A stretch of DNA of 18,061 bases, taken from contig JBQTIM010000184.1 of the NCBI GenBank assembly GCA_052388135.1, positions 1-18,061 on the forward strand. Direction: 5' to 3'. A program made the translations under genes and the position numbers. This document shows, one piece after another, positions 4,552-18,061 of the stretch. The notes under the pieces were generated by a model. The model saw only the letters and a list, made by a program, of their open reading frames with translations. It was not told the DNA's origin and did no database searches. Position 1 is the first letter of the stretch, and each line of letters starts with the position of its first letter. Source of the stretch: Elusimicrobiota bacterium (GTDB lineage: Bacteria; Elusimicrobiota; Elusimicrobia; FEN-1173).

Positions 4552-5337
4552 TCAAAAATTAAACGGTTCTAACGCTTGAATTCCGGAAAAACCACCCTCC
4601 GTAAATTCAACAATCGTCGTCGGTTGATTCGGAACTGTTTCTGGTTGACAACGTCCCCTAGCCCCCGACAGAAAATTGACGATGACGCCCGCAATCGTTG
4701 CCAGCAGAGTTAAGACCATGATTGCTAGCGTGAACATCTCTTTTCTATTCGGGCCTTGTGGCTCATCCAACGACACCGAAACATAAGGGAAGAGTTTCTG
4801 TTTTAGATTCATGTAGCTCGCTGCCCACAGCACGACCCCCGTTATGGCTATCGTGCTGGCCAGCAAGTACATCCCTTGCGCGGCGGCGAATGGCACTCCG
4901 ACGGCCGCAAGGCCAATTCCAATTCCCCCAATGGCCGGCATAGCCTTGCCGAGGCGCCAGTGCCAAGGTTTGTGGTTCTCCAAGAAGCGGCCAATGTGCT
5001 TCTCGAGCTTCAAGAACGTCCCTTCGTCAGTGGCGTGGGGCTGCCAGGACACGTTGTTGTGATTAAAATTTAAGGAAACGCCAGCATCGATTTCCTGATT
5101 CGCAGTCCAGCGCAGAGCACGAACCGATAAATGGTCTGTCTGGAGATCTGGAAGTTTGGCAGCGAGATCGTCGACCGTTTCCGCCTGGACTGTTCGCCGT
5201 TCATCGCGCACAGCGAACTCTAGGTGGACGTCACCTCCATCAAGCGCCCTTTTCAAAGCATCCTGGAGTTCATTCAGGCCACGTCGGGTGAGCCGCGTTG
5301 GAGGGCCGTCGTTCAGGCTGCGAAATTCTTCTGTCAT
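4552..5337 (-). CDS. Hypothetical membrane protein of the low-GC island: cytoplasmic N-domain of about 145 aa followed by 3 predicted TM helices
   Basis: The ORF lies in a region of about 48-50% GC inside a 68-70% GC background. I start it at the internal ATG at 5337, which has an AAAGGCGGA RBS-like sequence upstream; the ORF track extends to 5508. Hydrophobic helices are AIGGIGIGLAAVGVPFAAA, YLLASTIAITGVVLWAASY and FTLAIMVLTLLATIAGVIVNFL. The N-domain has no recognisable family. Confidence 0.5.
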   Translation of the reverse strand: MTEEFRSLNDGPPTRLTRRGLNELQDALKRALDGGDVHLEFAVRDERRTVQAETVDDLAAKLPDLQTDHLSVRALRWTANQEIDAGVSLNFNHNNVSWQPHATDEGTFLKLEKHIGRFLENHKPWHWRLGKAMPAIGGIGIGLAAVGVPFAAAQGMYLLASTIAITGVVLWAASYMNLKQKLFPYVSVSLDEPQGPNRKEMFTLAIMVLTLLATIAGVIVNFLSGARGRCQPETVPNQPTTIVEFTEGGFSGIQALEPFNF

Positions 5338-8053: not shown

Positions 8054-9199
8054 ATGAACATGGACATTTTTCTCATCGCCGGCCTGGCGCTGGTGGTGGC
8101 CCTGGGTTTCGCCGCCATTTTTTTCAGCTGGCAGGGCTACAAGGCCGCCCGCGAATCCCGCGGCAACGAGCAGGCCACGCGCCTGCTTCAACAGCAGTTG
8201 GAGGGCCTGCGCCTTCAGCTGGCCGAGAACATCAGCCGGCAAACCCAGACCGTGAACCAGCAGTTGGACCAGCTCACGACCCAGGTGAGCCGCCGGCTGG
8301 AGTCCGTTTCCGAGCAGATGGTGAACTCCCAGAAGGCCGTGGGCGACCGCCTGGACAACGCCGCCCGCGTGGTGGGGGAAGTGCAAAAAAGCCTGGGCGC
8401 CCTGGGGCAGGCGTCGGAGCGCATCTTCGAGGTGGGCAAGGACATCGCCGGCCTGCAGGAAATTTTAAGCGCGCCCAAGATCCGCGGCGGGCTGGGCGAG
8501 TTTTTTCTGGCGGACCTGCTTCAGCAAATCCTGCCCGCGCGGCACTTCGAGCTTCAGCACTCTTTCCGGACGGGGCACGTGGTGGACGCCGTCATCAAGC
8601 TCGGCGGGCGCATGGTGCCTGTGGACTCCAAATTCCCCATGGAGAACTTCCGGAAGGTGTTGGACGCTTGTTCCGATGAAGACCGCCAGGCCGTGAAGCG
8701 CAAGTTCGCCGCCGACGTCCGCAAGCACGTGGACGCGGTGGCCGCCAAATACATCCTCCCCGACGAGGGCACCTACGACTTCGCCCTGATGTACATCCCG
8801 GCGGAGAACGTTTACTACGAAACGGTGATCAAGGACGACGCGGGAGAGAATAAGTCCCTGACCGAATACGCGCTGGCCCGGCGGGTGATCCCGGTTTCGC
8901 CCAACTCTTTTTACGCCTACCTGCAGGCCATCATTCTGGGGCTCAAGGGGTTCGAGATCGAGGAGAACGCGCGGACCATCATGGAGAACCTGGCGCGCCT
9001 GCAGGGGGATTTCCGGCGCTTCCGGGATGAGTTCGACGTTCTGGGCCGGCACATCGGCAACACGCGGACGAAATACGAGGAAGTGGAAAAGCGCCTGGGG
9101 CGGTTCCAGGACAAGCTTGTGGCCGTGGAGGAGGAGGCCGCGCCCGCGGCCGTCCTGCCCGTCGCCGCGGGCGTCAAGCCGGCGGAGAGGGATATTTAG
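8054..9199 (+). CDS. rmuC: DNA recombination protein RmuC
   Basis: It has an N-terminal TM helix and a long coiled-coil. The RmuC core is conserved (VPVDSKFPMENF, DFALMYIPAENVYYE, VIPVSPNSFYAYLQAI). Confidence 0.85.
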   Translation: MNMDIFLIAGLALVVALGFAAIFFSWQGYKAARESRGNEQATRLLQQQLEGLRLQLAENISRQTQTVNQQLDQLTTQVSRRLESVSEQMVNSQKAVGDRLDNAARVVGEVQKSLGALGQASERIFEVGKDIAGLQEILSAPKIRGGLGEFFLADLLQQILPARHFELQHSFRTGHVVDAVIKLGGRMVPVDSKFPMENFRKVLDACSDEDRQAVKRKFAADVRKHVDAVAAKYILPDEGTYDFALMYIPAENVYYETVIKDDAGENKSLTEYALARRVIPVSPNSFYAYLQAIILGLKGFEIEENARTIMENLARLQGDFRRFRDEFDVLGRHIGNTRTKYEEVEKRLGRFQDKLVAVEEEAAPAAVLPVAAGVKPAERDI

Positions 9200-9274
9200 G
9201 ATTTTTTCTTTTTAGGCGAGCCGGCGTGCCGGCGCCGGCCGGTGTTCGGTATGTGAAACGTTTTTCAGATTCGG

Positions 9275-9318: not shown

Positions 9319-9372
9319 TCGGGTTTCCGAGGCTCCGCGCCGGCGTCGTGGGTCTAACGCTCCTTTACATCC

Positions 9373-9482
9373 GTCATTGCGAGGAGCGTCGTTGGCGACG
9401 AAGCAATTCCGGCTTTCAGCGCACGAAGAATGGCCTCAGCGCCGGGAAACCTGGGATTGCTTCGCCTTCGGCTCGCAATGAC
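9373..9482. repeat. Structured inverted-repeat element of about 110 nt (possible small RNA or REP/MITE-like element) in the convergent rmuC-9518 intergenic region
   Basis: The left arm GTCATTGCGAG...GAAGCAAT and the right arm ATTGCTTCG...CTCGCAATGAC are reverse complements (11 + 8 bp). Each arm contains its own small hairpin (GTCG-TTGG-CGAC and GCC-TTCG-GGC). No ORF support exists apart from an unlikely Arg-rich 71-aa frame. Confidence 0.4.
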
Positions 9483-9517
9483 AGCCGGATAAGCCAAGGG
9501 ACTTGTGAGACGCCGCG

Positions 9518-9778
9518 CTAGGGCTTGGGGGAAGGCGGGGGAAGTTCTTTGGAGCCCGCGGCCGGAACGGGCTCCTTCGGGGCGGACGGCCCGCCGGCCG
9601 CTTCGCCGCAGGCGGCCCGCGCTTCTTTAAGCTCGGCCTTCAGGCGGTCCACCAGGTAGCCGCCCAGGGCCATGGACGCGAAGGCCGCCAGCCACCCCGA
9701 CCAAAGAGTGATGTGGCGCAAGACGCGGATGTGCGCCTTGCGTTTCTCCTCGCGCTCGGCTTCCGAAAGCTCAGACAT
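9518..9778 (-). CDS. Small single-pass membrane protein (86 aa) with a Pro/Ala-rich tail, overlapping the ychF 3' end by 8 nt
   Basis: The ATG overlaps the ychF stop. One TM helix is present (ITLWSGWLAAFASMALGGYLV). No homology is recognised. Confidence 0.4.
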   Translation of the reverse strand: MSELSEAEREEKRKAHIRVLRHITLWSGWLAAFASMALGGYLVDRLKAELKEARAACGEAAGGPSAPKEPVPAAGSKELPPPSPKP

Positions 9779-11097: not shown

Positions 11098-11904
11098 CTA
11101 GCCTTGGAGTTTCAACTCAACGAAGGCGGTGGGGTCGAGGACGCGGAAGGTGAAGGATTCGGAGAGATAGAGGCGGACGGTTTTGCTGTCGTGGGTTTCG
11201 TAGCCGAGGGAGAGGTCCTGGCCCAGGGTGAGCTCCAGGTCGCCGCCGCGGGTGGAGACGAGGAATCCTCCTTCTATGAACGGGCTCAAGGCGATGGGGC
11301 CGCCCAGGAGTTGTTCGACCTGCTTGCGGGGCGGGTAGGCGGCGTAGCTCCCCTGCAGGGCCTGGAAAGGGCGCGGGCCGAGGACCAGGGCGTAGGGGCC
11401 TTCCACCTGCTTGTCTTTGAGGACCAGCATGGCGCGGACCACGGTGTCGGGAAACTTGGCGGCGTCGGCGGCCAGGGGGAGAGGGGCGTTTTCGCCGCCG
11501 CGGGCCAGGCCCGCGATGCCGCCGGGCTCGAAGCCGTCGTAAACGGCTTTCTCCTCGAAACCGGCGATGCGGCGGGCGGCGGCGTCCAGGGGAGCGAAAT
11601 CCAAATCGCGGGCGCCGCGCTCCACGTCGTCGAAAGACCACACGTTCAGCTCGAAGGAAGCCCGCGCCTCCACCAGAGGCAAAACGCGGTGGATGCCGTA
11701 GCACATCTTGTCTTCCGCCGGGCCGCAGGGGGCGACCGTCAGGCGGCCCAGGCCCACGGCGGCGAAATCCAGGCCTTTGGGCCCGTTGACGTCGGCGATG
11801 GCGCGGGCCGACAAATTGTTCCGGAGGGAGCGCCGCGCCTGGTCCTGCAGGGCGGCCCAGGCTTTGTCGGTGAGAGGGGCCAGGGATCGCTTTAAAATGT
11901 CCAT
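11098..11904 (-). CDS. Family 1 encapsulin nanocompartment shell protein (Linocin_M18 / HK97 fold)
   Basis: The match to T. maritima-type encapsulin is strong (ILKRSLAPLTDKAW, VSTRGGDLELTLGQDLSLGYETHDSKTVRLYLSESFTFRVLDPTAFVELKL). A perfect AAGGAGG RBS lies 6 nt upstream of the ATG. Confidence 0.9.
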   Translation of the reverse strand: MDILKRSLAPLTDKAWAALQDQARRSLRNNLSARAIADVNGPKGLDFAAVGLGRLTVAPCGPAEDKMCYGIHRVLPLVEARASFELNVWSFDDVERGARDLDFAPLDAAARRIAGFEEKAVYDGFEPGGIAGLARGGENAPLPLAADAAKFPDTVVRAMLVLKDKQVEGPYALVLGPRPFQALQGSYAAYPPRKQVEQLLGGPIALSPFIEGGFLVSTRGGDLELTLGQDLSLGYETHDSKTVRLYLSESFTFRVLDPTAFVELKLQG

Positions 11905-11914
11905 AAGGTCCTCC

Positions 11915-12364
11915 TTATCGTCGGGGAATGAGGGACGAGAGGGCGCGCCGCGCCTCCGGCAGAACCAGCGGCAGGATGAGGATATGCGCCAGCGCCGTGA
12001 GGATGCAATAGACGCACCAGGAGCCGGATTTCCGCATGGTGTTGAAATACCACACGGCGGCCGCTCCCTCCGCCGACGCTTTGCCGGCCAAGGCCAAGGG
12101 GATGAGGGGAAGCATCGCGGCCCGGTTCACGCCGCCGGCGGCCGCGAGAACGACGTTCAAGCTGAGCATGGCCAGGTCCACGGTTCCGTCGGGCACGCCG
12201 TACATATAGGCGGTGTCGGAAGAGTTCACGGCGGCGGAGTCGAAGCGCGGGCCCAGGGGCGGGTCGGCGAGGCCTTTGATCATCCCCGTCTGGAAAAGGG
12301 ACACGTAGGCCATGTTGGCCAGGCCGAAAAGGGACAGGCCGATGATCCAGCGCCGCCGCGCCAT
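11915..12364 (-). CDS. VKOR-like 4-TM membrane protein with a CxxC motif, inserted between the encapsulin cargo and shell genes; an alternative start at 12502 adds 46 aa
   Basis: Four hydrophobic helices are present. WCVYCILTALAHILIL at the start of the last helix matches the VKOR CxxC active-site placement. The loop segment NSSDTAYMYGVPDGTVDLAMLS aligns to the VKOR loop, but the loop Cys pair is replaced. The TAA stop lies 10 nt before the encapsulin ATG, with the encapsulin RBS inside the gene's 3' end. Confidence 0.45.
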   Translation of the reverse strand: MARRRWIIGLSLFGLANMAYVSLFQTGMIKGLADPPLGPRFDSAAVNSSDTAYMYGVPDGTVDLAMLSLNVVLAAAGGVNRAAMLPLIPLALAGKASAEGAAAVWYFNTMRKSGSWCVYCILTALAHILILPLVLPEARRALSSLIPRR

Positions 12365-12534
12365 GTCTCCGCCGGGCCCTTCCCGTATTTGCCGCCGCAG
12401 TTCCTGAGGAGGCAGGCGGCCCAGAAAAGTTTTAGGGGCTGCGGTTTTCACCCGGGGTCCTCCTTCCGGCACGGACGGGACAACCGCGCCGCCGACGGCC
12501 ATAAAACTCCGAAGGGCGTTCGCGGCGCGGCGGG

Positions 12535-12906
12535 TCACGAGGGTCTTTCGGCGCCGCGATTTTTCAAATTCCCCAGGCCCAGGTCGGCGGGCGCGTCCGG
12601 TCCGCCGCCTTTTTCCAAAGATTCTTCGACTTCGGTGATGGGGGCTTCGGTGAACAGATAGTTGCGGAGATTCTCGTCCCACTTCGGGCTGCGGCGGCGC
12701 AGCCACTCCAGCAGCATGCAGGCGTGCTCGATCTCCTCGTCGCGGTGGTGGGAAAGGACGGCTTTCAGCGCCTCGTCGCCGGAAGCGGCCACGCGCTGGT
12801 TGTACCAATCCACCGCCTCCAGCTCTTCCATGAGGCTTTTAACGGCTCGGTGCAGGTCGCGGGCGTCGTCGGGCAGAAGCTCGTAGGGCTCGTGGTACTC
12901 GGACAT
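12535..12906 (-). CDS. Encapsulated ferritin-like protein (EncFtn/Flp cargo) with a C-terminal encapsulin targeting peptide
   Basis: I start it at the internal ATG at 12906, which has a GGAG RBS. The EncFtn core is present (LHRAVKSLMEELEAVDWYNQRV ... HHRDEEIEHACMLLEWLRR). The C-terminal tail DLGLGNLK matches the family-1 targeting motif (L-x-V/I-G-S-L-K-like). Confidence 0.85.
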   Translation of the reverse strand: MSEYHEPYELLPDDARDLHRAVKSLMEELEAVDWYNQRVAASGDEALKAVLSHHRDEEIEHACMLLEWLRRRSPKWDENLRNYLFTEAPITEVEESLEKGGGPDAPADLGLGNLKNRGAERPS

Positions 12907-12993: not shown

Positions 12994-13022
12994 GTCAACG
13001 ACGGCGGGTGGAATGGTATAAT
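12994..13022 (+). promoter_or_regulatory. Sigma70-type promoter with an extended -10 (TGGTATAAT, about 13014-13022) for the CBS/YHS genes, in the region divergent from the encapsulin operon
   Basis: A perfect TGnTATAAT sits about 105 nt upstream of the CBS ATG. A weak -35 (GTCAAC/TCAACG) lies at 17-nt spacing. The rest of the window is GC-rich, which makes this motif stand out. Confidence 0.45.
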
Positions 13023-13127
13023 GGAAAGGAAGTTCCCCCCGCGCACCGACTCTCTCTCCCGACAACGGGTTCGCCCGACAATCCCGCCCGGCGCTCGCCG
13101 GACGGTCCCGTCCTGGAAGGAGGTTCC

Positions 13128-13574
13128 ATGAAAGCCAGCGATATCATGACCCGTGAGCCGGCCGTGTGCCTGCCGCAGAGCACCCTGCGCGACGCGGCCC
13201 AGATCATGGTGGAGGAAGACTGCGGGGCGGTCCCCGTGGTGGAAAACCGCGATTCCATGCGCCTGGTCGGCATCATCACCGACAGGGACATCGCCTGCCG
13301 CGCCGTGGCCGACGGCGCCCATCCCCTGCAAAAAACGGCCGGCGACTGCATGTCGAGCCCGGTGGTCACCGTGACGCCCGACGCCAGCCTGGAGGAATGC
13401 TGCGAGGCGATGGAGGAAAACCAGATCCGCCGCGTGCCGGTGGTGGACCGCGACGGCGTCTGCGTGGGCGTGGTGACCCAGGCGCACATCGCGCGCCGCG
13501 CGCCCGAATCCGACGCCGCCCGGGTGGTGAGGAACGTGTCCGAGCCCACGCGGGAAGCCTCCCGCGTGGGTTGA
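13128..13574 (+). CDS. CBS-domain pair protein
   Basis: An AAGGAGG RBS lies upstream. Two CBS motifs are present (IMTREPAVCLPQSTLRDAAQIM ... VPVVENRDSMRLVGIITDRDI, and CMSSPVVTVTPDASLEECCEAMEENQIRRVPVVDRDGVCVGVVT). Confidence 0.8.
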   Translation: MKASDIMTREPAVCLPQSTLRDAAQIMVEEDCGAVPVVENRDSMRLVGIITDRDIACRAVADGAHPLQKTAGDCMSSPVVTVTPDASLEECCEAMEENQIRRVPVVDRDGVCVGVVTQAHIARRAPESDAARVVRNVSEPTREASRVG

Positions 13575-13585
13575 AAGGAGGCGTT

Positions 13586-13774
13586 ATGGAGGAAATGAAA
13601 ACCATGGACCCCGTCTGCGGGCGGGAGGTGGCGGTGGACAAGGCCGTCCGCGCCGAGTTCGAGGGGGACGAGTTCCACTTTTGCTCGCCGGAATGCCGGG
13701 AGGTTTTCTTGAGGGAAATGGAGCATTTCCAGGAGGAAGCCCGTTCCCAGCCGGAAATCGGGAACCCGCGCTAG
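13586..13774 (+). CDS. YHS-domain (TRASH-like) metal-binding protein, 62 aa
   Basis: An AAAGGAGG RBS lies upstream. The YHS signature is DPVCGREV ... FEGDEFHFCSPECREVF. The gene starts 12 nt after the CBS gene. Confidence 0.75.
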   Translation: MEEMKTMDPVCGREVAVDKAVRAEFEGDEFHFCSPECREVFLREMEHFQEEARSQPEIGNPR

Positions 13775-13944: not shown

Positions 13945-14778
13945 TCAGCCGCCTTTGGGCATGCGGGTTTTTCGCAGGATGAGATCGCCGAGCCTGGGGA
14001 AGAGGACGCTCAGCCAGGCGCCGGGGCGCACCCACCAGGGGACGTAAACCTCCAGGGGCTGTTTTTCCACGGCTTTCACCACGGCCCGGGCGGCGCGTTC
14101 GGCGGAAATGCCGCGGATGTGGCGCGGGTAGTCCCGAGGCAGGCGCGACCGGTCCACACTCTCCGGCATTTCCGTTTCCACGCCGCCGGGGTAGATCACG
14201 GTGAAGCGGATGTTCTGCGCCGCCAGCTCCAGCCGCATGGATTCCGTGAGGCCGGCCAGGGCGAACTTGCCGGCGGAGTAGACGGCCATGTAGGGCAGGC
14301 CGCGCCGGCCGGCGCCCGACCCCACGTTGACGAAGTGCCCGCCGCCCTGGCGGGCCATGACGGGCGCCGCCGCCCGCACGGCGTGGACGGCGGGCCAGAA
14401 ATTGGTGGCGAAAATGTTCTCCATGTCGGACAGAGGCATGGACAGGACCGGCTCCATGATCAGGACGCCGGCGTTGTTGATGAAGACGTCGAGCCGGCCG
14501 TAGTGGTCGTGGGTCTTCTTGACGATGGACTCCACGTCCTCGCGCCGCCGCACGTCCGCCGGCAGGACCAGCGGCGGCGCGCCGCCGCGGTCCAGCAGTT
14601 CCCGCGCCAGCGATTCAAGCCGCGACACGCGGCGAGCCGCCAGGGCCAAAGCGTGCCCGCGCGCCGCCAAAGCCAGCGCCGCCGCCCGCCCGATGCCCGA
14701 TGACGCGCCGGTGATGAGGATGACTTTCTTGATTGCGGATTTCGGAGGGCGGATTGGGGATTGAGGATCCGACGTCAT
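13945..14778 (-). CDS. Short-chain dehydrogenase/reductase (SDR) family oxidoreductase
   Basis: The Rossmann motif is TGASSGIGRAAALAL. The NNAG motif and the active-site region are present (YSAGKFALAGLTESMRLE). I prefer the ATG at 14778; the ORF track extends to 14826. Confidence 0.85.
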   Translation of the reverse strand: MTSDPQSPIRPPKSAIKKVILITGASSGIGRAAALALAARGHALALAARRVSRLESLARELLDRGGAPPLVLPADVRRREDVESIVKKTHDHYGRLDVFINNAGVLIMEPVLSMPLSDMENIFATNFWPAVHAVRAAAPVMARQGGGHFVNVGSGAGRRGLPYMAVYSAGKFALAGLTESMRLELAAQNIRFTVIYPGGVETEMPESVDRSRLPRDYPRHIRGISAERAARAVVKAVEKQPLEVYVPWWVRPGAWLSVLFPRLGDLILRKTRMPKGG

Positions 14779-14822
14779 TTTCCGTTCCGCTTGGCGGTTT
14801 TTATGGAAGCCACCGTCATAGT

Positions 14823-16526
14823 TCATTGCCGCTCAGCAATGCGCGATCCGAAATCCTCAATGTATTTATTCGTGACGGGCATGCGGCGGTCGCGGCCGAA
14901 GGCTTTGGGGGTGATCTTCACGCCGGGCGGGGCCTGGCGGCGCTTGTGCTCGGCGGCGGCGATGAGGCGCAGGACGCGCCGCGCGGCCGTTTCGTCCGCG
15001 CCCGCCTTTAAAATTTCAGCCAGGCCTTTGTCGCCTTCCACGGCCAGCTCGACGATCTTGTCGAGCGCGTCGTAGGGCGGCAGGGAATCCTGGTCCGTCT
15101 GGTTCGGGCGCAGCTCGGCAGTGGGCGGGCGGTCGAAGACGCTTCGCGGGATGATCTCGCGGCCGGCCCTCTCGTTGACGCGGCGCGCCAGGCGATAAAC
15201 GAGATTTTTGGGAATGTCCTTGATGACGGCGAAGCCGCCGGCCGTGTCGCCGTAGAGAGTGCTGTAGCCCACCGAGGTTTCCGATTTGTTCCCCGTGGTG
15301 AGGACCATCCAGCCGAACTTGTTGGACAAAGCCATCAGCAGGACGCCCCGGACGCGGGATTGCAGGTTCTCCTCGGTGATGTCGGCGGGTTTTCCGGCGA
15401 AAAGGGGCGCCAGGGCCTCCAGGAACTTCTCGACCACGGCCTGGATCGGGATGGAATGGAACGCCAGGCCCAGGTTGCGGGCCAAAGTTTCGGCGTCGGA
15501 GCGCGTCTCCGGCGCGTTGAACTTGGAGGGGAGCGTCACCCCGACGACGTTTTCGCGCCCCAGGGCGTCGGCCGCCACGCAGGCCACCAGGGAGGAATCA
15601 ATGCCGCCCGAGAGGCCCACCACCGCTTTCTGGAATCCATTTTTGCGCAGATAGTCCCGCGTGCCCAGCACGAGGGCGGCGTGGATTTCGTCCAGCTCCG
15701 CCAGCGGAGAAGCGACGGCCGGCGGAACGGCCGGGCGCGGCGCCGAGGGGGAGGGGAGGCTGAAAGCCGCGCGCGCGGGCTTGCGGGCCGGGGGAAGGTC
15801 CAGGTCCAGGGTGAGGAGGGCCTCCTGGAATTGGGGCGCGCGGGCCAGGACGCGGCCGCGGGGGTCCACCACGAAGGACGCGCCGTCGAAGACCAGCTCG
15901 TCCTGGCCGCCCGCGAGGTTGCAGTAGGCGACGTGGGCGCGGCTTTCCCGCGCGCGGGCGCGCAGGAGTTTTTCCCTTTGATCCAGCTTGCCGGCGTGGT
16001 AGGGGCTGGAGGAAATGTTGAGGATGAGGGAAGCGCCTTTCCGCGCCGCCTGGAGGGCGGGGCCGCCGGCCGTCCAGATGTCCTCGCAGACGGTGACGCC
16101 GGCCAGAGCGCCGCCGCTTTTGAGCAGGAGCGGGTCGCGGCCGGGGACGAAATAGCGCCGTTCGTCGAAGACGCCGTAGTTGGGCAGGAGCTGTTTGCGG
16201 TAGAAGGCGCGGACTTTGCCGCCGGAGATCACGGCTGCCGCGTTGAAGAGGCGGCCCGGCGCGCCCTCGGGACAGCCCGCCACGGCGGCGAGCCCCGGCG
16301 GAAAATCGCGCGCCAGAGTTTGCAGGGTCCGGGCGGCGGCCTTGAGGAAAGGGCCGTGGAGCAAAAGGTCTTCCGGGGGATAGCCCGTGAGCGCCAGCTC
16401 GGGAAACAGCACCAGGTCCGGGCGCAGAGGGGCGGCGCGGCGCGCGAAATCGAGGATCTTGGCCGCGTTGCCGGTTAAATCCCCGACGGTGGGGTTGATC
16501 TGCGCGAGGGACAGGCGGAAGGGCAT
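14823..16526 (-). CDS. nadE: Glutamine-dependent NAD+ synthetase (N-terminal nitrilase/CN-hydrolase domain plus C-terminal NAD synthetase domain)
   Basis: The start is MPFRLSLAQINPTVGDL, by codon arithmetic from the ORF track. The CN-hydrolase region is FPELALTGYPPEDL, and the nitrilase catalytic cysteine sits in VTVCEDIW. The P-loop of the synthetase domain is GLSGGIDSS. The protein is 567 aa. Confidence 0.9.
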   Translation of the reverse strand: MPFRLSLAQINPTVGDLTGNAAKILDFARRAAPLRPDLVLFPELALTGYPPEDLLLHGPFLKAAARTLQTLARDFPPGLAAVAGCPEGAPGRLFNAAAVISGGKVRAFYRKQLLPNYGVFDERRYFVPGRDPLLLKSGGALAGVTVCEDIWTAGGPALQAARKGASLILNISSSPYHAGKLDQREKLLRARARESRAHVAYCNLAGGQDELVFDGASFVVDPRGRVLARAPQFQEALLTLDLDLPPARKPARAAFSLPSPSAPRPAVPPAVASPLAELDEIHAALVLGTRDYLRKNGFQKAVVGLSGGIDSSLVACVAADALGRENVVGVTLPSKFNAPETRSDAETLARNLGLAFHSIPIQAVVEKFLEALAPLFAGKPADITEENLQSRVRGVLLMALSNKFGWMVLTTGNKSETSVGYSTLYGDTAGGFAVIKDIPKNLVYRLARRVNERAGREIIPRSVFDRPPTAELRPNQTDQDSLPPYDALDKIVELAVEGDKGLAEILKAGADETAARRVLRLIAAAEHKRRQAPPGVKITPKAFGRDRRMPVTNKYIEDFGSRIAERQ

Positions 16527-16561
16527 AAGGGGCGGGCGCCGCCGGAGCGCGGGCCGGGCGG

Positions 16562-17788
16562 CTACCTTTTTAAATCTTCGGCCAGCAGGATGGCCTCGGC
16601 GATGTCCTTCATGGACTTGCGGCGGTCCATGCTCTGTTTTTGGATTTCGCGGAAGGCCTCGGGCTCGGAGACGCCGCGCTGTTTCATGAGCACGCCCTTG
16701 GCCCGCTCCACCAGCTTGCGGGTCTCCAGGGCCTCCTGGGCGGCCAGTTTCTCGGTCAGCAGGCGCGTGTGGACGATGGCCGAGGCGCACTGGTTGGCCA
16801 CGGCCTGCAGGAGGTCCACGTCCTCCTTGGCGAAATGAAGTTCCTCGGCCGCGTAGGTGTTGATCACGCCCACGGCCTTGTCCTTGAAAAGCATGGGCAC
16901 CGAGAGCATGGAGACCAGGCCCTCGCTGGCGGCGATGTCGGGGAAGCCGTAGCGCTTGTCCTTGCGCACGTCTGGCACCGTGACGGGTTTTTTCTCCAGC
17001 ACCGCCTGGCCGGAGATGCTTTGGCTCACCTTGATGGGCGGCTTGTTGCGGTAGGCGTCCGACAAGGATTGGGTGGCGGCGATGCGCAGTTCCTTGCCGT
17101 CGTCGTCCAAAAGCATGACGGAGCAGGTCTTGGAGCCGAGGAGGGAGGCCGTCATGGCCACGATGAGCTGGAGGATTTCCTCCGGGTAGCGGTTGGACGC
17201 CACGGTGTGCGAGACGGCGGAGAGAGTTTGGATGGCGTCGGCCTTGCGCTTGGCGTCCTCGTAAAGCCGCGCGTTCTCGATGGCGCCGCCCACCTGCCGC
17301 GCGATGGTGGCCAGCAGTTTCAGCAGGCTGTCGCCGTGGGCCACGGGCTTGCGGTGCTGGACGTTCACCACGCCCGCCAGGCCGTCCCGCGCCAGAATGG
17401 GCACGGAGAGGAACCCCTCGTAGCGGTCCTCGGGCAGGCTCTGGAAGAATTTAAAGCGCGGGTCTTCGTGGGCGCGTTCGGAAAGCACCAGGGGTTTCTT
17501 GTGCTGGGCCACCCAGCCCGTGAGGCCTTCGCCGACCTTCAGGCGCAGGCGGCCGATCTCGCCGGGGTGCGGGGTCTTGGAGGCTGAAAGCACCAGGCTG
17601 TTGGAGGGGGGAGGCTCGTATAAATATAGGAAGCAGGCGTCCGCCTTGGTGACGCGGGTCACCAGGCCCACGATTTCCTGGAGGATGGGCTTCAGCTCGA
17701 GGGTGGAGCCCAGGATGCCGGTGATCTGATGGAGAAGATCGAGCTCGGCCGCCGAGTCAGCCGGGGCTGTTTTTTTCGCGCGAGGCAT
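16562..17788 (-). CDS. GAF-GAF-ANTAR regulator (signal-sensing RNA-binding antiterminator)
   Basis: Two GAF-like domains are followed by a C-terminal ANTAR domain (AQEALETRKLVERAKGVLMKQRGVSEPEAFREIQKQSMDRRKSMKDIAEAIL). A GGAG RBS lies upstream of the ATG. The stop lies 35 nt upstream of nadE. Confidence 0.75.
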   Translation of the reverse strand: MPRAKKTAPADSAAELDLLHQITGILGSTLELKPILQEIVGLVTRVTKADACFLYLYEPPPSNSLVLSASKTPHPGEIGRLRLKVGEGLTGWVAQHKKPLVLSERAHEDPRFKFFQSLPEDRYEGFLSVPILARDGLAGVVNVQHRKPVAHGDSLLKLLATIARQVGGAIENARLYEDAKRKADAIQTLSAVSHTVASNRYPEEILQLIVAMTASLLGSKTCSVMLLDDDGKELRIAATQSLSDAYRNKPPIKVSQSISGQAVLEKKPVTVPDVRKDKRYGFPDIAASEGLVSMLSVPMLFKDKAVGVINTYAAEELHFAKEDVDLLQAVANQCASAIVHTRLLTEKLAAQEALETRKLVERAKGVLMKQRGVSEPEAFREIQKQSMDRRKSMKDIAEAILLAEDLKR

Positions 17789-17844
17789 AAAAGGTTTGCT
17801 CCAGTCGGAAGGATTTTAGAAACTGTATCAGGCGCCGGGCCAGG

Positions 17845-17873
17845 TTGACAAGCATACACATGTATGATAAAAA
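17845..17873 (+). promoter_or_regulatory. Strong sigma70-like promoter (TTGACA-17 nt-TGaTAAAAA) pointing rightward and divergent from the GAF-ANTAR gene, with a palindrome (CATACA-CA-TGTATG) in the spacer
   Basis: It has a perfect -35 hexamer, a 17-nt spacer and an extended -10. The spacer palindrome looks like an operator. Confidence 0.5.
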
Positions 17874-17962
17874 TTATTTATGAGGCCAAAAGTTCCGGTT
17901 CGCCGCGGGCCTTCCCGCCCGCATCCTGCAAGTCATCCGGAAACCTGTCATCGAGGAGGAGG

Positions 17963-18058
17963 CCGATTTTTCCGCGCCGAGGCGAAGAGCGAGAGGGGCG
18001 CAGGCCCTCTGCGGCCTGTAACCGACGAGCAACGAAGCCGCAGGGCGCGGAAAAATCG
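17963..18058 (+). other. Highly structured transcribed leader or ncRNA: 14-bp perfect inverted repeat (GATTTTTCCGCGCC ... GGCGCGGAAAAATC) enclosing about 68 nt with mutually exclusive hairpins; truncated by the window end
   Basis: The region lies 80-180 nt downstream of the promoter at 17845-17873. The internal alternatives are CGCAG-GCCCT-CTGCG versus CAGGCC-CTCTGC-GGCCTG, with a downstream CCGCAG able to pair with CTGCGG. A GAGGAGGAGG stretch sits just 5' of the element. Confidence 0.4.
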
Positions 18059-18061
18059 GAA

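Follow-up and report, generated by a model that had tools for sequence, protein, structure and literature searches.

Does a regulator that carries an RNA-binding domain necessarily act on the structured RNA encoded beside it? The question is raised by one end of an 18,061-nucleotide (nt) stretch of DNA from an Elusimicrobiota bacterium (contig JBQTIM010000184.1, assembly GCA_052388135.1), which was analysed at its full length and is referred to here as the window. A gene for a GAF-GAF-ANTAR regulator of 408 amino acids (16562..17788, minus strand) heads an operon with nadE, which encodes glutamine-dependent NAD+ synthetase, and a divergent promoter leads from there into a hairpin-rich region that reaches the contig end. 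An earlier reading, made from the sequence only, saw in this region an attenuator-type leader and a plausible target of the ANTAR protein. Our analysis points to a different arrangement, in which two unrelated units lie back to back, an ANTAR-nadE-SDR operon on the minus strand and, on the plus strand, lexA with an insert of palindromic repeats; we put the probability of this reading at roughly 0.78. Such a result removes a tempting but wrong assignment of a target to a regulator.

The window is a complete contig, and its end falls 2 nt past an inverted repeat. The extension to the right that the sequence-only reading had recommended was made by way of P0121, a Joint Genome Institute member of the regulator's 90% cluster, followed by a search for LexA homologues. 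In two loci that are 95% identical over ANTAR-nadE (L167 and L168), lexA begins 52 nt after the same promoter and is followed by UPF0182. A search with the LexA of these two loci found L170, a contig of 1,796 bp that comes from a different sample, which shows only one mismatch to the final 302 nt of the window (17760-18061) and runs for a further 243 noncoding nt past the window end to the ATG of lexA (L170 558-1193). Against TIGR00498, with its cutoff of 111, the encoded protein reaches 178 bits; it also matches PF01726 and PF00717, as a winged-HTH and S24-peptidase protein should, and VPAGAP, GDSM and VKR can be read in its sequence where a LexA has its Ala-Gly site and Ser/Lys dyad. Two other contigs, L169 and L171, bear out the two ends of the L170 haplotype, which is carried by four independent assemblies (the window, L169, L170 and L171). 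The sequence at the contig end is not a foldback artefact of assembly, as L170 and L169 independently reproduce it. In L173, whose LexA is 67% identical, lexA is likewise divergent from ANTAR-nadE-SDR. Because L170 overlaps the window end and continues to lexA, the downstream gene, which lies outside the window, is lexA, and the divergent promoter is, judging from this overlap, the one that drives it.

The promoter itself (17845..17874, plus strand) has the near-consensus form that had been proposed for it, TTGACA-17-TGaTAAAAA, with TTGACA at 17845-17850, a spacer of 17 nt, TAAAAA at 17868-17873 and the TG at 17865-17866, and it starts 57 nt past the start codon of the ANTAR gene. A promoter scan returned 2 promoter-like sites where 0.1 were expected, and the promoter recurs before lexA in L167, L168, L170, L172 and L173. 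In its spacer lies a palindrome, CATAC-ACAT-GTATG (CATAC-N4-GTATG; 17853..17866, site sequence CATACACATGTATG), which can be followed through its recurrence elsewhere as a putative LexA box. The palindrome, previously noticed as an operator within the spacer, is real and conserved: TTGACA-N3-ATAC-N4-GTAT-N1-2-TAnAA is found in seven promoters, four of which belong to lexA (the window, L167, L172, where LexA is 68% identical, and L173). Two more are those of L001 and L005, which no longer have lexA at this place and in which DUF6504 or UPF0182 comes next. Across 330 kb of Elusimicrobia loci, ATAC-N4-GTAT has 7 distinct exact sites, 6 of them in such promoter spacers. A second exact copy in L167 (3442-3453) is flanked by TTGACC and a -10-like box and precedes, by 17 nt, a radical-SAM gene that resembles the DNA modification/repair radical SAM family TIGR03916; this gene probably belongs to the putative LexA regulon as well.

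Given its fixed place in the spacer of lexA promoters, its recurrence at a repair gene and its LexA-like dyad geometry, the palindrome is most probably the operator by which LexA would regulate its own promoter. It shares with known promoters of this kind a 4/5-N4-4/5 palindrome over the lexA promoter that recurs at a DNA-repair gene. Known LexA boxes include GAAC-N4-GTTC in Firmicutes and Actinobacteria and TGTTC-N4-GAACA in Verrucomicrobia (PMC4951493); the half-site here is ATAC, not the GAAC of Firmicutes and Actinobacteria. In the literature that we searched, neither a LexA motif nor an SOS system is described for Elusimicrobiota, and the palindrome offers a candidate motif for this phylum. 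Unlike known LexA systems, the putative regulon takes in genes for DUF6504 and for the large membrane protein UPF0182, which come after lexA, and directly after the lexA-type promoter where lexA has been lost (L001 5508-5810, L173 4634-4996, L167 6212-8965 and L005 2-2665). Both genes may be damage-inducible in this clade, and no link of either to LexA was found in the papers searched.

The same few nucleotides also belong to the opposite unit. A minus-strand promoter with an extended -10 (17822..17851; TTGTCA at 17851-17846, a spacer of 18 nt, TACAGT and a TG at 17830-17829), likewise from the promoter scan, would drive ANTAR-nadE-SDR as the first unit, and the plus-strand promoter would be the autoregulated lexA promoter of the second. 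Their -35 hexamers overlap at 17845-17851 (TTGACA for lexA, TTGTCA for ANTAR-nadE). Because the putative LexA box directly adjoins the -35 of the ANTAR promoter, occupancy by LexA could have an effect on the NAD-synthetase operon of this lineage; the ANTAR and lexA-type promoters of L173, L001 and L005, unlike those of the window, are separated. The position of the palindrome immediately upstream of the operon's -35, together with the overlap of the two hexamers and the retention of the palindrome in L001 and L005 despite the loss of lexA, could also be explained by a regulator other than LexA that acts at this operator, perhaps bidirectionally on ANTAR-nadE, such as a NAD- or nitrogen-responsive repressor. 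We consider this improbable. Within the promoter directed away from the ANTAR gene, the palindrome has a constant place in the spacer, whereas its distance to the ANTAR promoter varies from overlap in the window to about 13-100 nt in L173, L001 and L005, and most ANTAR-nadE orthologues lack it altogether. It moreover recurs in L172, a contig that starts about 110 nt upstream of lexA and shows no ANTAR gene, and before the repair radical-SAM gene of L167, 6 kb away.

With a LexA operator at lexA as the preferred interpretation of the palindrome, the structured region between promoter and gene can be considered by itself. The part within the window (17875..18061, plus strand) is the first 187 nt of a lexA leader, a noncoding stretch of roughly 435 nt in all, and the leader varies between strains. 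Aligned with L167, the window and L170 have about 420 nt where L167 has 45 nt, as does L168, between the -10 and a point ~10 nt before the lexA ATG, with nearly identical flanks on both sides. The leader is absent from L167 and L168, whose regulators fall in the same 90% cluster, from L172 and L173, and from all other orthologous loci. Folded in full, it is far more stable than its shuffles (z = -8.05 for the 435 nt), and the 182 leader nt visible in the window give z = -1.65. Inverted repeats of 49 nt at 80% and of 13 nt at 100% occur in it. The former are the arms of a palindromic element that we call H-A (17930..18061, plus strand; 80% complementary arms at L170 183-231 and 297-345), whose 5' arm occupies 17930-17978 of the window and whose 3' arm runs beyond the contig end, so that the element is cut there. 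Its perfect core, known from the sequence-only reading as a repeat of 14 bp, is indeed present, with a length of 16 nt rather than 14 (17963-17978 / 18044-18059), and hairpins with hexaloops, of which that reading had mentioned one, are found at 17905-17922 and 18000-18019.

A second palindromic element, H-B (GTCATTGCGAG...CTCGCAATGAC), lies in the part of the leader beyond the window, at about 385-497 of L170 (about 356-517 for the copy with its flanks). It has another copy in the window at 9353..9511 on the minus strand (blastn, 81% over 162 nt, E 3e-36), in which both stems are kept and the loop has diverged. This copy sits in the 570-nt intergenic region between rmuC and ychF, directly after an open reading frame of 86 amino acids (9518-9778, minus strand), which itself overlaps the ychF stop. 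H-A was found as one copy in a search that covered the 18-kb contig and 1.49 Mb of loci. Neither blastn nor nhmmer gave a homologue of the leader in 166 loci, the metagenome collection held 0 exact matches to both 16-nt arms of the inverted repeat at 50-80 nt from each other, and Rfam returned nothing relevant for the window (at gathering and E-value thresholds), for 17700-18061 or for all of L170. A protein-coding origin of 17881-18061, which would have undercut any leader, was ruled out: no frame shows the pattern of GC content at the first, second and third codon positions that the window's genes have, and sister strains lack the stretch. The open reading frames set aside in this way are an Arg-rich one from 17881, one from 17864 that stays open as far as the contig end and a minus-strand one that enters from the end.

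Families of intergenic palindromic repeats, some of them resembling miniature inverted-repeat transposable elements, are known from other bacteria as REP/BIME, ERIC, Correia and RUP. The elements found here are similar in being imperfect intergenic palindromes of 110-170 nt with presence/absence polymorphism and, for H-B, more than one copy; they differ from these named families in the number of copies seen, two for H-B and one for H-A, and in that the only candidate target-site duplication is an imperfect pair. The explanation that fits the leader best is an insertion, variable between strains, of palindromic repeat elements, possibly selfish or neutral, into the 5' region of lexA, with the contig ending inside it. 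Elements of this kind, one of them dispersed, would sit between the lexA promoter and lexA in this haplotype, where the sister strains have 45 nt.

The exceptional stability of the predicted structure might also be taken as the mark of a functional element, either one that acts in cis on the regulation or processing of the lexA mRNA or an independent small RNA, and the sense orientation of both H-B copies with respect to their local transcription units, as well as the occurrence of the haplotype in four independent assemblies, would agree with it. Such a role appears very improbable to us, as the leader belongs to no Rfam family and is not conserved in sister strains or at other lexA loci, and the other copy of H-B lies downstream of an unrelated operon. 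In L167, a different palindrome of 167 nt (9065-9231; outer arms 29 nt at 86%, inner arms 45 nt at 73%), unrelated in sequence to H-A and H-B, occupies the spacer between lexA and UPF0182, which suggests that elements of this type are generally abundant in these genomes.

Could the inserted leader nevertheless be the RNA on which the neighbouring regulator acts? According to the attenuator model of the sequence-only reading, the plus-strand promoter feeds a leader in which the ANTAR protein prevents termination before the downstream gene. The regulator and a structured leader do adjoin, the ANTAR domain keeps its RNA-contact residues, and just past the window the leader contains one pair of hexaloops with A at the first and G at the fourth position (A1/G4). 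We nevertheless regard the model as extremely improbable. Across L170 1-700, a range that spans the promoter, the full leader and the start of lexA, 0 terminator-like sites were found. Between 17789 and 18061 of the window, no A1/G4 hexaloop is found on either strand; the loops of the two hexaloop hairpins there are CUUCCC and CUCUGC. The one A1/G4 pair of the full leader has a linker of 24 nt and a weak second stem. The leader is moreover missing where the regulator is >90% identical (L167 and L168), as well as in L172 and L173, part of it is a dispersed repeat, and the neighbour divergent from the ANTAR operon differs between loci, being a fatty acid hydroxylase gene, crcB preceded by a fluoride riboswitch, NamZ or a radical-SAM gene. 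The supposed link between protein and leader is thus unsupported: the promoter belongs to lexA, and the strain-variable leader is in part a dispersed repeat. An RNA-binding regulator beside a structured leader is no evidence of control, especially at a contig end in strain-variable repeats.

The scan for the ANTAR dual-hexaloop motif, proposed for leaders genome-wide, was run on the window and on 31 orthologous loci and returned hits at chance level only. The whole window holds 1 dual A1/G4 match against 1.04 expected, and in the 31 loci, over a span that reaches from 1.5 kb upstream of the ANTAR start to 4.5 kb downstream, strict A1/G4 dual hexaloops are at chance level and at no conserved position. 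Since these scans give only chance hits, and since the 5' untranslated regions are short and unconserved, the RNA target of the ANTAR protein may lie elsewhere in the genome, outside the window and the orthologous loci. The regulator gene differs in this respect from known ANTAR systems, as no cognate leader with dual hexaloop and terminator adjoins it.

What the regulator is reliably associated with is the gene behind it. nadE (14823..16529, minus strand; 568 amino acids with CN_hydrolase and NAD_synthase domains) begins 35 nt after the ANTAR gene stop, and its product scores 707 bits against NF010588 (cutoff 479). A gene for an SDR oxidoreductase (13945..14826, minus strand; adh_short, 6e-54) follows, overlapping the nadE stop by 4 nt. 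We collected 37 loci whose encoded orthologues are 57-100% identical; nearly all of the loci come from Elusimicrobiota metagenome-assembled genomes or metagenomes. In 30 of the 37, nadE comes directly after the ANTAR gene, and the other 7 consist of contig ends, a split hit or, in one locus, an intervening gene. The spacers between the two genes mostly measure -4 to 35 nt, with a maximum of 88 nt, and contain no conserved hairpin, terminator or antiterminator. Among the orthologous loci, those whose ANTAR protein is at least about 62% identical have the SDR gene after nadE. This direct adjacency across orthologous loci is strong evidence that ANTAR-nadE(-SDR) is a conserved operon in Elusimicrobiota, and it backs the co-transcription that had been suspected from the window by itself.

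Eight orthologues (L001, L003, L005, L008, L010, L011, L013 and L015) have a promoter of the form TTGAC-N17/18-TGaTAAAGT at a distance of 40-100 nt before the ATG, and the 5' untranslated regions of the operon in the orthologues are short and show no conserved structure by eye. The gene on the other side varies (DUF6504-UPF0182, UPF0182 alone, a fatty acid hydroxylase gene, crcB, NamZ or a radical-SAM gene). Known ANTAR regulators adjoin the catabolic operon that they regulate, whereas this one heads an operon with nadE. That a tandem-GAF ANTAR gene stands constantly before the glutamine-dependent nadE throughout an uncultivated phylum provides a testable physiological context for the large GAF-ANTAR class, which is the commonest ANTAR architecture in mycobacteria and is still uncharacterised (10.1101/660928; PMC3369931). 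A GAF sensor is consequently not the rarity among ANTAR proteins for which it had been taken, being part of the majority architecture in mycobacteria (10.1101/660928).

The domain composition of the regulator is clear. Pfam finds GAF in two stretches (7e-39) and, at residues 350-401 of the C-terminus (16586..16741, minus strand), a full-length ANTAR match (4e-23); PF03861 scores 81 bits against a cutoff of 27 over profile positions 3-54 of 54, which confirms the hidden Markov model match of the GAF-GAF-ANTAR assignment. A protein 100% identical over the 408 amino acids is annotated in an Elusimicrobiota metagenome-assembled genome. GAF1 (17267..17755, minus strand; about residues 12-174) resembles the domain of EI-Ntr/PtsP: by sequence it is closest to the GAF domain of PtsP (PDB 3ci6, E 5e-19; NF008283, PtsP, 7e-30), and the best single domain in Foldseek is again the EI-Ntr/PtsP GAF 3ci6, with a TM-score of 0.85-0.91 and 30% identity to GAF1. 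The Foldseek search with the regulator model also gives the tandem-GAF modules of PDE5, PDE2 and CyaB. GAF2 (16775..17185, minus strand; about residues 202-338, the best Pfam GAF stretch) is similar to the GAF domain of NifA, with residues 185-362 matching positions 3-183 of TIGR01817 (nifA) at E 1.6e-24, far below the family cutoff. The output differs from that of both relatives, as the regulator ends in an RNA-binding domain where EI-Ntr has a phosphoenolpyruvate phosphotransferase and NifA an AAA+ activator.

An AlphaFold model built on an alignment of 34 orthologues has a predicted local distance difference test score (pLDDT) of 87 and places, in this order, GAF1 at residues 12-150, a long helix, GAF2 at 202-313, another long helix at 321-371 and the helices 375-389 and 393-407. 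The ANTAR domain is modelled as a helical bundle that is entered by the helix 321-371, with a pLDDT above 90 in this part. The solved structures nearest to it are Rv1626 (1s8n, 2.4e-14), followed by NasR and EutV. In common with Rv1626/PdtaR of M. tuberculosis, EutV of E. faecalis, NasR of Klebsiella and AmiR of P. aeruginosa, the regulator has a full-length ANTAR domain with a preceding long helix; it differs from them in its sensor, which is a tandem GAF rather than a REC, NIT or pseudo-REC domain. Like the actinobacterial GAF-ANTAR proteins, it is a one-component system with GAF fused straight to ANTAR, and it is set apart from these by its two GAF domains (one EI-Ntr-like and one NifA-like), its occurrence in Elusimicrobiota and its fixed partner nadE.

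A gap-free alignment with EutV allows the RNA-contact positions to be compared one by one. The EutV residues are R142, K143, K147, K149, E160, Y164, R168, M172, N173, R175 and R177, and at 8 of these 11 positions, where the regulator has R357, K358, R362, K364, E375, F379, M387 and R390, the contact is retained or conservatively replaced. Among the 34 orthologues, seven of these eight residues are invariant and R362 is nearly so. The remaining three, Q383, D388 and S392, depart from the EutV contacts, the Q and the D in the same way in Rv1626. In EutV, a Met "plug" is essential and an aromatic residue stacks on G4 (PMC8934654); M387 and F379 of the regulator align with these two positions. Because the EutV contact residues are kept, and are invariant or nearly so among orthologues, the ANTAR domain very probably binds hexaloop RNA.

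Which signal the regulator might respond to can be approached from its GAF domains and its neighbour. EI-Ntr's GAF domain binds glutamine (PMC4848567), and elsewhere nadE is linked to glnB and the glutamine-dependent NadE interacts with PII (PMC7196632). Since GAF1 is EI-Ntr-like and GAF2 NifA-like, the partner enzyme consumes glutamine and a link of this enzyme type to PII exists in other organisms, we tentatively suggest nitrogen status, in the form of glutamine or 2-oxoglutarate, as the best candidate for the signal, a proposal that we regard as possible yet still somewhat doubtful. The ligand would occupy the tandem GAF module, the signalling helices would pass the change in the GAF domains on to an ANTAR dimer (the dimer being itself assumed), and this dimer would then bind hexaloop RNA encoded elsewhere in the genome. 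As in the glnB-nadE pair, the gene of a candidate carbon/nitrogen-status sensor stands fixed beside glutamine-dependent nadE; unlike there, the neighbour is a GAF-ANTAR protein, and PII is not adjacent to nadE in the fetched loci, where tblastn with E. coli GlnB gave a single match, which lies in L013, 3 kb upstream of the ANTAR gene and away from nadE. That the GAF-ANTAR protein might contact NadE, by analogy with the PII-NadE complex, is pure speculation. Taken together, one may picture the GAF-ANTAR protein as replacing PII as the nitrogen/carbon-status input to glutamine-dependent NAD+ synthesis, acting through non-classical hexaloop RNAs of nadE or of a wider nitrogen regulon, with the operon in some lineages joined to a lexA promoter that has an undescribed LexA box, ATAC-N4-GTAT, and with DUF6504 and UPF0182 maybe in the SOS regulon; as a whole, this combination is unlikely.

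Several observations weigh against the arrangement of two unrelated units or against parts of it. The LexA box is deduced from seven promoters, several of which are kin by descent and only one of which belongs to an SOS-type gene other than lexA; this single case is the repair radical-SAM gene of L167, in a set of loci that includes no recA, uvrA or imuA. H-A, the element that holds the inverted repeat of the sequence-only reading, was found once only, so that its nature as a repeat is presumed, and the direct repeat that flanks the insertion (GGGCCTTC / GGGTCGCTTC) is imperfect and appears under one possible alignment of the indel. The full leader does hold one A1/G4 hexaloop pair, at L170 309-324 and 349-362, with the second stem made of 4 bp including two G-U pairs. 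A pair of this kind occurs in 2.7% of shuffles, with the linker relaxed post hoc; natural linkers of eut dual hexaloops measure 5-12 nt, and one of 14 nt drastically reduced induction in eutP (PMC3369931). The minimal ANTAR site has, however, been reduced to a single hexaloop in the EutV structure (PMC8934654), and binding of the lexA leader RNA by the ANTAR domain is in the strict sense conceivable. The ligand, finally, is assigned by best family similarity alone, at scores far below the full-length family cutoffs.

Some further features of these loci concern the surroundings of the operon. In L164, a fluoride riboswitch (RF01734, 56 bits; 4725-4794, minus strand) precedes crcB in the position divergent from the ANTAR operon. 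In the window, three minus-strand genes lie between the SDR gene and ychF, coding for an encapsulin shell protein (Linocin_M18, 9e-75; 11098-11904), a VKOR-domain protein (11915-12808) and a family-less protein of 243 amino acids (12995-13726). No cargo protein for the shell was recognised. The block of three genes looks like an insertion, because the SDR gene adjoins ychF in L005 and L162, where ychF comes directly after it. The same interval in L164 contains a gene of the bAvd / 23S_rRNA_IVP family (8820-9164), and genes of this family often accompany diversity-generating retroelements.

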